This document shows positions 57,801-60,800 of a stretch of DNA of 64,000 bases, piece after piece. A program made the position numbers. The DNA lies in assembly GCF_057098645.1 (NCBI RefSeq), contig NZ_CM169472.1; one strand, given 5' to 3'. Every line of letters starts with the position of its first letter. The first letter of the stretch is position 1.

Positions 57801-60800
57801 CAGTCCGCCTCCGTCCAGATAAGTGTATTCATGGGGCCGGAAGCCCACAGAAAGCCCCCTGACCAGCCCGGTCTTAATGGCAGCCCAGGCCTCATCCAGC
57901 CGGGCTGCCATCTGGGAGGGCATCCCCGGCTCCGGCTTCACCAGCATTGCCGTGATTTCCAGCCCTTCCCTGCCCCGACGCACCGTACACTGGCCTACAG
58001 GGCGGGAATGGTCATGCTGCCAGAGAAACGGGATCGTACTGCCAAACTCCGCCCCCTCCGGCTCCAGGATGTCACCATCCCGATCCGGAGAAGGCGTTGA
58101 CGCAATCCCGGTGATCACCCGTTCATCCTCACTGAAGGATTTCACCGTCAGCAGGGAACAGGCCCGTTTAAGAGTCACATCAGCCTCCTGAAAATAAAAA
58201 AACCGCCGCAGCGGTTCATGATGGTTACAGGGTGAGCAGGGTTATATGAAAAAAACCTCATACGCTTTCTTTTTCGGTTCCGGATTCAGGGACATCAGGG
58301 ACACCGCATTGAAGAGCGCCATCAGAGGGTCAATTTTTCCCCGTCCGCTGGCCTGTTTGGTGATAAGAATGGCGTTACCTTTAGGCTCCACCCGGGCATT
58401 GCCAACGCACCAGGCCATCAGTGGCTGACCACCATGCACCAGCACTCCCTCAGCCAGTTTGCGCTCGGTGGTTTTGATGGCCCCGCCCAGTTTCCAGCCC
58501 TGGCTTATCCCCACCACACTCTCATCGGGGATCCCGGCTTCCGCCAGTGAATCCAGAATCTGCCCCACACCTGACGGGTCAATACCGATATGATCCAGTA
58601 ACTCAGCCTCATGAATACGACGCACATACTCCGCCACTTCCGCCGTGTCATCCCCGACCCGACGGACAATCGTCATGTCTCCACAGGCCACAAAATCCTG
58701 AAACCGGGATGCCTCACTCTTCCGTCTGACCACCGCGGTTTCATGCACCCAGGCATGGCCCCAGCCCAGCCATTCGCGGGTTTCCCTGTCACGGCCAGTC
58801 ACGTACATTCCCAGCAGATCATCCAGGCCCCCGCCGTCAATCCCCACCGTCACCACATCAGCGCGCTGCAGGATATCGTCCAGGCTGACGCGCCTGCCCT
58901 GCTGCTCCCAGAAATCCGCCCCTGCCCAGCGGTCAGAACGCAGGGCAAGACCGATTTCCACATTGGCGTGTTTTGACATGAAACCGCGGAAAGTCTCTTC
59001 CCCGGCTTCCCGGGCTTTACGATACTCCCGGTACAGAAAGGCCTCATCCACCGAATAACCGAGATTCGGGTTAACCATGGCGAGGTTTTCCATCAGCAGG
59101 TGCTCACCGCTCTCCACCATTTCAGGAGGATGCTCAAAAATCACCGGCAGAAAATGTGGATCATGAATTTTACCGTCGCGCACATCCCGGGCGTACTGCA
59201 GTTTCTGCCTGAACACCCCGGCAGGCGGCTCATTTGACTGGGTGGTTGTGTACACCACAAACCCTTCCGGACGTGAAGCCAGCCCGCCAATGGCTTCACG
59301 TAACATGTCCTCCGCCTTGTACTGCTTGCCAAACAGCCACAGTTCATCAATCAGCGTCCCCACGGACTTGATACCGGACACCGTATTCGGATCGGCTGCC
59401 ACCACCTTCAGGGTGGTGTCCGTCACCCTGTGGGTGATGGTCCGGATATGTGTCTGCACCTGACAGAGGTCATCCAGATCATCGTCCCGTCGTACCATAT
59501 CCCTGGCAGGGTTGAAGGCGTTGGCTGCCACCTCCACTGTCGGGGCCAGAATCGTGTAACCCGCCGCCTGCCGCCAGTTCAGTAACAGTGCAGTCATCAT
59601 GATCCCCGCGGCCAGCGTGGACTTCGAGTTTTTCTTGGGGATAAGGATAAACACTTCCTTGATATGGCGAACACCGGTCTGCGCATCGTAGGAGCCAAAC
59701 AGGGCCGCCACCAGGTCAAACACCCACGGTGCACAGGACTCCCCGAATGTCGGGCTACCCGGTGCATCCACAATCCGCAGTTGTTTAAAAATCGCCAGTG
59801 CATGTGCAGCCTGGTCCGGATAAATCGGAGCCGGAATAATCGACAGCCCCTTTTTCAGGCGCTCTGCCCAGTCCGGGCAGGCCGTGCTCCACACAGGTAT
59901 CATCCGTTGCCCTCATTATCATTATTCACCACCAGGCGGGGTGGTGGTGGCACCGCAAAACGGTTAGCCGCTTTTTTCGCCGCGTCACCTTTTGCCGATT
60001 TTTTACCGGCATCCCCTTTTTTGTGGTGCGTGAACTGCGCCAGCTTATAAGCCGCATCCAGCGCCAGCCTGGGGTCGGTATTAATGTTCTCCACCAGAAG
60101 ACGCCCCATCGCTTTCACCGGATCGGGAAGACCGTCCTCCATATACTCAATACCAGGAGATATCACCACGGGCGGTGGCATCTCCGGATTTGTTTCGTCC
60201 GGCTGTGGTATTGCAGCCGCCTCACGGCGACGGGGTTTATCCTCCTGCTCTGATTTTTTCTGCCGGTAAACAGGAACCTCATCCACCTCCACCGTCTCGC
60301 ATTGTTTACGGGCTATAAACGCAAGCACCTCCGGATCTTTTGCCAGCTGCGAGCCTTTAACCCTGGCGGTCTTCGCCGAATAACCAGCGGCAATGGCTGA
60401 CGCTGTTTTGTTTTTCCCGGACATGAGCGCCAGCGCAAATTTTCGTTTTTGCGTTGTCAGCACAGCCTCCTCCCGGGTCCAGAACGCACTCAGCCGGGTA
60501 TGGTTCAGCCCATTTTTCCCGGCGTCTCATGCCGCAAATGTTAACTGCTGCCTGGTTAACATTTGCTGAAAAAGCCAGTTAACATTTTTTCCGCACAACA
60601 AACTGAATAATAAAGATAAAAACCGCAAAAATGCCCGGACAGCCAGTTAACATGTTAACTGCCCTGAAACGGGAATTTTTTCTCTGCGTGAGAGGGGGCG
60701 CGGTGTCCGGAGCGATCGTTTTTTTCGCCGGATGATCCCCCGTTACTTTATTCGAACCCCTTATAATGGGGTGTTAGCCAGCCAGACCCGGCATGATTAC

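Follow-up and report, generated by a model that had tools for sequence, protein, structure and literature searches.

In phage lambda, gpNu1 binds cosB, a series of sites in the order R3-I1-R2-R1 between cosN and the Nu1 gene, and does so together with IHF. Phage HK97 has a single 15-bp site for its small terminase subunit (TerS, gp1), which is threaded through the TerS ring and occupies +15 to +29, on that flank of the cut where terS lies, and its HNH protein gp74 stimulates cos cleavage, with a 10-nt 3′ overhang. SPP1 and SF6, by contrast, are headful packagers with imprecise ends, and sequence-specific binding by their TerS proteins is disputed. A review describes the recognition of viral DNA by small terminases as still elusive and controversial (PMC9611059), and this holds in particular for TerS proteins with a helix-turn-helix of SF6/SPP1 type. 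Here we describe an array of five short repeats upstream of terS in an Escherichia coli O157-type lambdoid prophage, contained within a 64,000-bp stretch of contig NZ_CM169472.1 (RefSeq assembly GCF_057098645.1), hereafter the window. Comparative sequence evidence suggests that this array is a cosB-like TerS recognition region belonging to an HK97-type cos site, i.e. one that is HNH-assisted and leaves 3′ overhangs, and we put the probability of this reading at roughly 0.75. The first-pass annotation of this DNA had offered both a cosB-type site and a repressor-binding array; the former is supported by the position of the array relative to published cos ends, by the conservation of the sites against diverged spacers and by their covariation with the TerS helix-turn-helix.

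The array shares several features with lambda cosB. Both consist of short repeated sequences, putatively TerS sites here, in both orientations just inside the left end between cosN and terS, spread over ~120-150 bp. In lambda, a bend or IHF element separates the first site from the later ones, and the array has a candidate counterpart of this with a weak consensus match. Specificity that goes with the N-terminal DNA-binding domain of the cognate TerS is known for lambda and is indirectly indicated here by the motif classes. However, there is no sequence homology between the two, the TerS encoded here is of family PF03592 (an SF6/SPP1-like helix-turn-helix) and not Nu1, the 12-nt 5′ overhangs of lambda are replaced by 10-nt 3′ overhangs with an HNH partner, and the first site here is an overlapping palindrome. 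With HK97 the locus shares the order HNH, cos, terS, terL, the 10-nt 3′ overhang and a TerS site, putative here, on the terS side (from +32 onward here), but five or six repeated sites of helix-turn-helix type over 125 bp stand in place of the single HK97 site. In fold and Pfam family, the DNA-binding domain of this TerS agrees with those of SPP1 and SF6, whose pac regions have multiple TerS contacts flanking the cut on A/T-tract DNA (PMC9611059), as is proposed here; the locus described here differs from these in its precise cos ends and exact repeats. No description of the array sites was found in the searchable literature, which was an incomplete library: a search with the motif string returned unrelated primers only, and papers on SfIV and Serratia phages held no usable cos sequence for this phage family. 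Within that library, cosB-type elements are known, whilst the array in this widespread phage group is apparently undescribed.

Sequence and layout of the array

An exact search of the window recovered five copies of GTTAACAT, all inside 122 bp (60538-60659), with none elsewhere. The chance expectation is a mean of 1.39 copies per window, and five or more copies occurred in 0 of 100 dinucleotide-preserving shuffles of the whole window. Two copies are on the minus strand (60538-60545 and 60652-60659) and three on the plus strand (60555-60562, 60578-60585 and 60646-60653). The five repeats in both orientations within about 120 bp that were reported in the first-pass annotation are therefore borne out, as is their location upstream of the small terminase gene, given the family matches of that gene (Table 1); its GTG start codon lies 74 nt beyond the end of the nearest array site. 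The extended motif claimed for all five, (C/G)CAGTTAACAT, fits only four of them, the exception being 60553-60562, which reads CTGGTTAACAT. Conversely, the palindrome that had been given as GTTAACATGTTAAC is real and longer than stated, as the two cos-proximal copies overlap to form an 18-bp perfect palindrome, CAGTTAACATGTTAACTG (60644-60661). At the other end of the array, 60534-60545 and 60555-60566 make up a perfect 12-nt inverted repeat with a 9-nt gap, comprising sites 4 and 5.

The spacer between the palindrome and the three terS-proximal sites contains T5 tracts ~9-10 bp apart (starts 60631 and 60622 on the minus strand), a spacing that suggests bendable or bent DNA. It also contains ATTCAGTTTGTTG, which has two mismatches to the IHF consensus WATCAANNNNTTR and is preceded by an A/T-rich stretch; about two such matches are expected by chance per 278 bp. 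The positions specified by the consensus (ATTCA...GTTG/A) and the T-tracts are kept in 8/8 diverged lineages, whilst the N positions and other spacer positions vary. ATTCAGTTTGTTG is a candidate counterpart of lambda I1.

Position relative to the virion ends

Zhang et al. (PMC7946995) reported on the virion DNA of the induced Shiga toxin (Stx) 1 phage Lys8385Vzw, for which PhageTerm called a cos phage with 10-nt 3′ cohesive ends, CGCCCCCCCT. The record of this phage ends in ...GGACACCGCCCCCCCT and starts with CTCACGCAGAGAAAAAATTCCCGTTTCAGGGCAGTTAACATGTTAACTGG, and over the 229 nt between its left end and the GTG of terS it matches window positions 60692 down to 60464 with 100% identity. Because of this identity with a left end whose position is published, the array can be placed at +32 to +156 of the virion chromosome. 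The cohesive end can likewise be assigned to the cosN sequence in Table 1, since the ends of the Lys8385Vzw record map there and the flanks are identical. The PhageTerm call for this phage of identical sequence is one of cos with 3′ cohesive ends, which is not what is seen in the headful packaging of the SPP1/SF6 pac type, with its imprecise and terminally redundant ends. Moreover, the record of Burkholderia phage Bcep176, which encodes a TerS homologue, opens and closes with a 10-nt terminal repeat at the homologous position. In distant relatives the conserved block before terS takes the form GGGGGGG ... CGATC ... GGACACCGC(C/G)CCCCCTCTCACGCAGAGAAAAAAT.

The G-run upstream of cosN (window 60737-60741 / 62191-62196) is present in every relative, from E. 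coli to Burkholderia, and it ranges in length from ~6 to 10 G, with differences even where prophages are nearly identical; this conserved element is thus polymorphic in homopolymer length, and may act on the right-end, cosQ-like side of cos. Many distant relatives (L071, L074-L078, L091-L112 and others) carry A/T-rich, partly palindromic blocks of the form AATGATAAT-N-ATTCTCATT / TGAAAT-N-ATTTCA. These Fur-box-like blocks lie after the HNH stop codon and before the G-run, ~60-130 nt upstream of the cos core, and are absent from the E. coli Stx-type phages.

Conservation of the sites and motif classes

Relatives were collected by searching 5,426 complete E. coli genomes; eight diverged lineages were aligned and their site and non-site columns compared by Fisher test. 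Relatives whose TerS is at least 74% identical all keep the five sites, but with the whole region ~97% identical they are uninformative. The diverged lineages, which were rarer in the search, fell into classes by motif. Among those with GTTAAC sites (class A, to which the window belongs), site columns are 95-97% identical and non-site columns 56-67% (p 1e-7 to 3e-5). In class B all five sites have switched together, from GTTAAC to (A/G)TAAAC, with palindromy, order, orientation and spacing kept: the palindrome CAGTTAACATGTTAACTG becomes TATAAACATGTTTATA, which is still perfect, site 3 changes from ATGTTAACTG to ATGTTTATAC, site 4 from ATGTTAACCA to ATGTTTACAG and site 5 from CAGTTAACAT to GGTAAACAT. 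Diverged class B pairs show 100% identity in site columns as opposed to 71-78% in non-site columns (p ~2e-4 to 2e-3), two close pairs being uninformative. In a third class (class C), arrays of AAAAGTTACAC with the core GTTACAC lie behind the same cos core, in satellite-like islands. Two class A lineages (L170 and L176) have a sixth site, an extra copy by site 4. In each of three lineages, the extended flank of site 3 is that of the right half of the palindrome (ATGTTAACTGGC, ATGTTAACCACC and ATGTTTATACCC).

By this comparison the array sites are selectively conserved. An alternative is that the array arose through local duplications at an ancestral terS start, homogenised by gene conversion, and has no function. 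The palindrome does lie exactly at the ancestral terS ATG (see below), ~195 bp were apparently inserted after it, and site 3 copies the flank of the palindrome. Such a relic would not be expected to retain sites that are 95-100% identical whilst the intervening DNA falls to 56-78%, nor to keep site number, order and orientation across three motif classes, nor to persist with intact sites in 1,282 of the 5,426 genomes. Selective conservation of the sites therefore contradicts a neutral relic, and we regard this explanation as highly improbable.

Covariation of the motif with TerS

TerS residues 2-57 match PF03592 (E = 2.6e-8). In an AlphaFold2 model, residues 1-56 have a predicted local distance difference test (pLDDT) score >90 and form helices at 4-14, 19-25, 33-41 and 44-56, which are followed by a disordered linker and C-terminal helices. 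The best Foldseek matches were the TerS of the cos phage PaP3 and, with a TM-score (normalised by target length) of 0.82-0.84 and a root-mean-square deviation of 1.6-2.4 Å, the DNA-binding domain of SF6 TerS (4zc3 and 2cmp).

Each motif class is paired with its own version of this domain. TerS proteins with KTARVKGSQ (...AGYS-x-) accompany GTTAAC sites, those with KSARCKGSQ (...EAGYS-x-) accompany TAAAC sites, and those with KTARVKGWQ (S38W) accompany GTTACAC sites. L176 (class A) and L178 (class B) have 100% identical HNH proteins, identical cos cores and TerL N-terminal regions that are 93% identical. Their TerS DNA-binding domains differ only by T25E, T32S and V35C, and yet every site is switched. 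Similarly, L170 (class A) and L169 (class B) have TerL proteins that are 99% identical and different arrays. L170 also has the HNH-side sequence of the class B phage A34, yet a class A array together with a class A TerS. Among the sequences compared, the three motif classes thus sort with TerS residues 25, 32, 35 and 38, and not with HNH, TerL or the small DUF3950/YlcI-like gene, which does not sort by motif class and is frameshifted in one class B prophage. Each of these three proteins was considered as specificity partner and rejected, being identical, near-identical or broken across classes. In the model, residues 25, 32, 35 and 38 would flank or lie in helices 2-3, the expected helix-turn-helix, and we propose that the N-terminal domain (residues 1-56) reads the array.

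The sites could instead be operators for another sequence-specific DNA-binding protein, encoded by the phage (a regulator or repressor) or by the host (a transcription factor), whose role would be to control head-gene expression or to mark the region, with TerS reading, for example, the cos core. Dimeric regulators typically have perfect palindromes and inverted repeats such as the 12-N9-12 one seen here, and conservation extends much further across relatives for the cos core (GGACACCGC...CTCACGCAGAGAAAAAAT), which could hold a universal TerS site, than for the array. Moreover, two of the sites form a promoter-like match on the plus strand. However, this match is weak: it covers 9/12 positions only, consists of the array sites and would be poorer still in class B. 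A search for promoters and terminators yielded nothing further. A regulator encoded nearby would be expected to change with the motif, whereas HNH is 100% identical across a class A/B pair, TerL is 99% identical across classes, and the linked small DNA-binding-like gene of the DUF3950 family does not track motif class. A host factor, for its part, leaves three motif classes within one host species unexplained. The repressor array envisaged in the first-pass annotation has no support either: within the late operon the repeats have lysis genes on one side and head genes on the other, the immunity region is a long way off, and no regulator next to the repeats tracks them. We therefore consider operators for another protein unlikely.

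The class C arrays occur in two settings. One group of satellite-like islands (L066-L070, ~2380-2990) has a primase gene, terS and a capsid-like gene but no terL; in another (L174/L175, ~900-1674) AlpA and terS alone are found beside an autotransporter gene, and the C-terminal half of the L174 TerS resembles phage TerS. From its gene content, this layout would fit the use of a helper phage TerL. The phage-inducible chromosomal islands (PICIs) of E. coli reportedly redirect packaging at cosB by means of an Rpp adaptor, and the pathogenicity islands of Staphylococcus aureus (SaPIs) are said to use a satellite TerS. The class C islands keep a helper-type cosN core together with their own TerS helix-turn-helix and a different site array (GTTACAC), in line with what is described for PICI cosB. 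In contrast to the PICI Rpp adaptor, the switch in specificity would here come from the TerS homologue of the satellite, whose helix-turn-helix is altered.

Relatives without the array

A search for the motif in homologous phages, as suggested in the first-pass annotation, gave a divided result: intermediate homologues carry the array, but with a different motif and a correspondingly altered TerS, whilst distant homologues lack it and have one related site at the same distance from cos. The latter comprise 72 distinct upstream regions (Salmonella FSL SP-016 and many IMG/VR contigs), in which the single site is GTRTAAACATGTTAACAG, and their TerS proteins resemble database-named proteins of Serratia, Pantoea, Enterobacter, Klebsiella, Hafnia and other genera. 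In these relatives terS begins ~20 nt after the cos core, inside an invariant GT(A/G)TAAACATGTTAACAG, so that the single site overlaps the terS start codon. It is collinear with the palindrome of the window, whose central ATG corresponds to their start codon. In 65/65 distinct genes the second codon is TTA, which accounts for 1.4% of the Leu codons in the remainder of these genes, and codon 3 is ACA in 64/65 as opposed to 21% elsewhere, whilst later synonymous sites vary freely. Even the GC-rich Burkholderia homologues have TTA here, in GTTAATGGCTTTAAC. We infer that the ancestral state is one site over the start of terS, to which ~195 bp with extra copies were added in the E. coli lineages.

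These observations also bear on a possible role in RNA, in which the leader of the late mRNA would form hairpins ahead of terS and these would affect how the transcript is translated, processed or stabilised. Sites 4 and 5 could form a 12-bp stem and the palindrome a hairpin, and the class B changes preserve full complementarity. Furthermore, the motif of the array-less relatives overlaps the terS start, with a ribosome-binding site ~7 nt upstream, where an RNA structure or a translational repressor could act. On the other hand, the fold of the 237-nt leader has a z-score of only -1.83, its minimum-free-energy structure does not contain the simple site pairs, and no Rfam match was found in 60300-62300 at E <= 1. 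No G-U wobble substitutions were seen, and the right half of the palindrome recurs with its flank, in direct orientation, as site 3, which a hairpin model does not need. The covariation with the TerS helix-turn-helix would also go unexplained unless TerS binds RNA. Taken together, these points make an RNA-level role quite improbable.

A 24-codon open reading frame (MLTGCPGIFAVFIFIIQFVVRKKC) begins at the central ATG of the palindrome and runs from 60653 to 60579 on the minus strand. It was considered as a gene and rejected as a probable relic, because the ancestral ribosome-binding site ahead of it is degraded (CAGGGC in place of GGAGGG) and the class B version is shorter and of unrelated sequence.

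Proposed mechanism and points against it

During late growth, oligomeric TerS would bind the 8-10-bp sites of GTTAACAT type through its flexible N-terminal helix-turn-helix domains, making contacts at the palindromic pair (+32 to +49 from the cos cut) and at the three further sites (+108 to +155). With the T-tract spacer between them, to whose bending IHF possibly adds, a single TerS assembly may reach both clusters. TerL and the HNH protein would be brought by this complex to cosN, ~30 bp away, where their cut would leave 3′ ends of 10 nt, after which DNA would be packaged in the direction of terS. TerS binding to the sites, DNA bending or wrapping, the involvement of IHF and the order of events are all inferred.

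Several points weigh against the array being a TerS recognition region. SF6/SPP1-type TerS proteins are weak, non-specific binders in vitro (PMC9611059). The independent lineages are few, at ~3 in class A, 5-6 in class B and 2 in class C, and the array adjoins the DNA that codes for the TerS DNA-binding domain, such that co-inheritance by linkage inflates the apparent covariation. Relatives with a very similar helix-turn-helix manage on one site, and hence the extra sites are not strictly required by the TerS family. Taken alone, the IHF-like match is not significant. Lastly, the perfect inverted repeats are also compatible with RNA hairpins.

A broader and distinctly tentative idea is that the helix-turn-helix and the array form a compact, exchangeable cassette of packaging identity with a simple code, in which T25E/T32S/V35C would go with the change from GTTAAC to TAAAC, whilst S38W would go with GTTACAC. 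By swapping or mutating this cassette, phages and satellite islands with a common cos cutting site might make packaging private or hijack it. The cassette might have grown from the ancestral single site over the terS start, which might also have allowed TerS to regulate itself.

This phage group offers exact sites at a known distance from mapped cos ends. Moreover, its natural specificity variants are three helix-turn-helix residues apart in otherwise near-identical packaging modules, which makes the TerS-DNA code directly testable. The module is of medical relevance, since many Stx1a and Stx2c prophages, and some Stx2a ones, have it for head packaging, and there it defines the DNA that these phages, and satellites copying their cos, can mobilise.

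Prophage setting and neighbouring genes

The packaging genes of the window prophage are encoded on the minus strand in the order HNH, cos, terS, terL (Table 1). Many Stx1a and Stx2c prophages of E. coli, and some Stx2a ones, have a head module with 97-100% identity to this region; BP-4795, 2851, YYZ-2008, 1717 and PPompW are among them. About a quarter of the complete E. coli genomes contain the module (1,282/5,426), with up to 7 copies per genome.

Table 1. Coordinates of the cos region, the array and the surrounding genes in the window
Feature	Position in window	Strand	Position from virion left end	Remarks
cosN cohesive-end sequence CGCGCCCCCT	60693..60702	-		Common one-base variant of CGCCCCCCCT
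cos-proximal double site, palindrome CAGTTAACATGTTAACTG	60644..60661	-	+32 to +49	Two overlapping half-sites
T-tract spacer	60586..60643	-	+50 to +107	58 bp, between palindrome and three terS-proximal sites
IHF-like site ATTCAGTTTGTTG	60596..60608	-	+85 to +97	Inside spacer
Site 3	60576..60585	+	+108 to +117	CAGTTAACAT on plus strand; ATGTTAACTG in terS direction
Site 4	60553..60562	+	+131 to +140	TGGTTAACAT on plus strand; pairs with site 5 in inverted repeat
Site 5	60538..60547	-	+146 to +155	CAGTTAACAT in terS direction; closest to terS
terS start			+230	
Prohead protease-capsid fusion (putative)	56241-58178	-		Gene directly after terL; 645 aa
terL, large terminase	58242-59903	-		phrog_9 and related families; 553-aa homologues with PF03354, PF20441
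terS, small terminase	59900-60463	-		phrog_641; PF03592
ISEc20 (IS110 family)	~60742-62190	+		1.45 kb, in C/G run between HNH stop codon and cosN; boundary uncertain by a few C residues
HNH endonuclease gene	62205-62570	-		Directly upstream of cos; phrog_589; annotation in Stx2a_1447
DUF3950 small gene (YlcI/YnfO family)	62612-62839	+		phrog_949; divergent from HNH
Rz/Rz1	63202-63669	-		

Related records name the 645-aa product encoded after terL either as a prohead protease or as a major head protein, which would fit a protease-capsid fusion. The N-terminus of the DUF3950/YlcI-like protein (NIRFPNQMIEQINIAL) resembles a ribbon-helix-helix, and its gene accompanies the packaging module in many prophages.

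The cos region of the window prophage is interrupted by the insertion sequence ISEc20, which lies in the conserved G-run ~40 bp from cosN on the HNH side. Intact relatives lack it and have an HNH-terS spacer of 288 bp. We considered whether the array might be part of this element (e.g. an IS110 bridge-RNA region) and rejected this, as relatives free of the insertion keep the array and the element begins ~80 bp past it. The PPompW prophages have the same insertion, followed by tRNA genes and Q in place of HNH, pointing to a deletion there. Two unrelated ISEc20 copies in E. coli (L181 and L183) have the same flanks, ...CCCC / IS / CCCCCC(G/T)GG, as those in the window (60737-60745 and 62185-62200). 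Since these flanks recur in unrelated copies, ISEc20 seemingly targets C-runs, and the cos-proximal G-run of this phage family is such a target.

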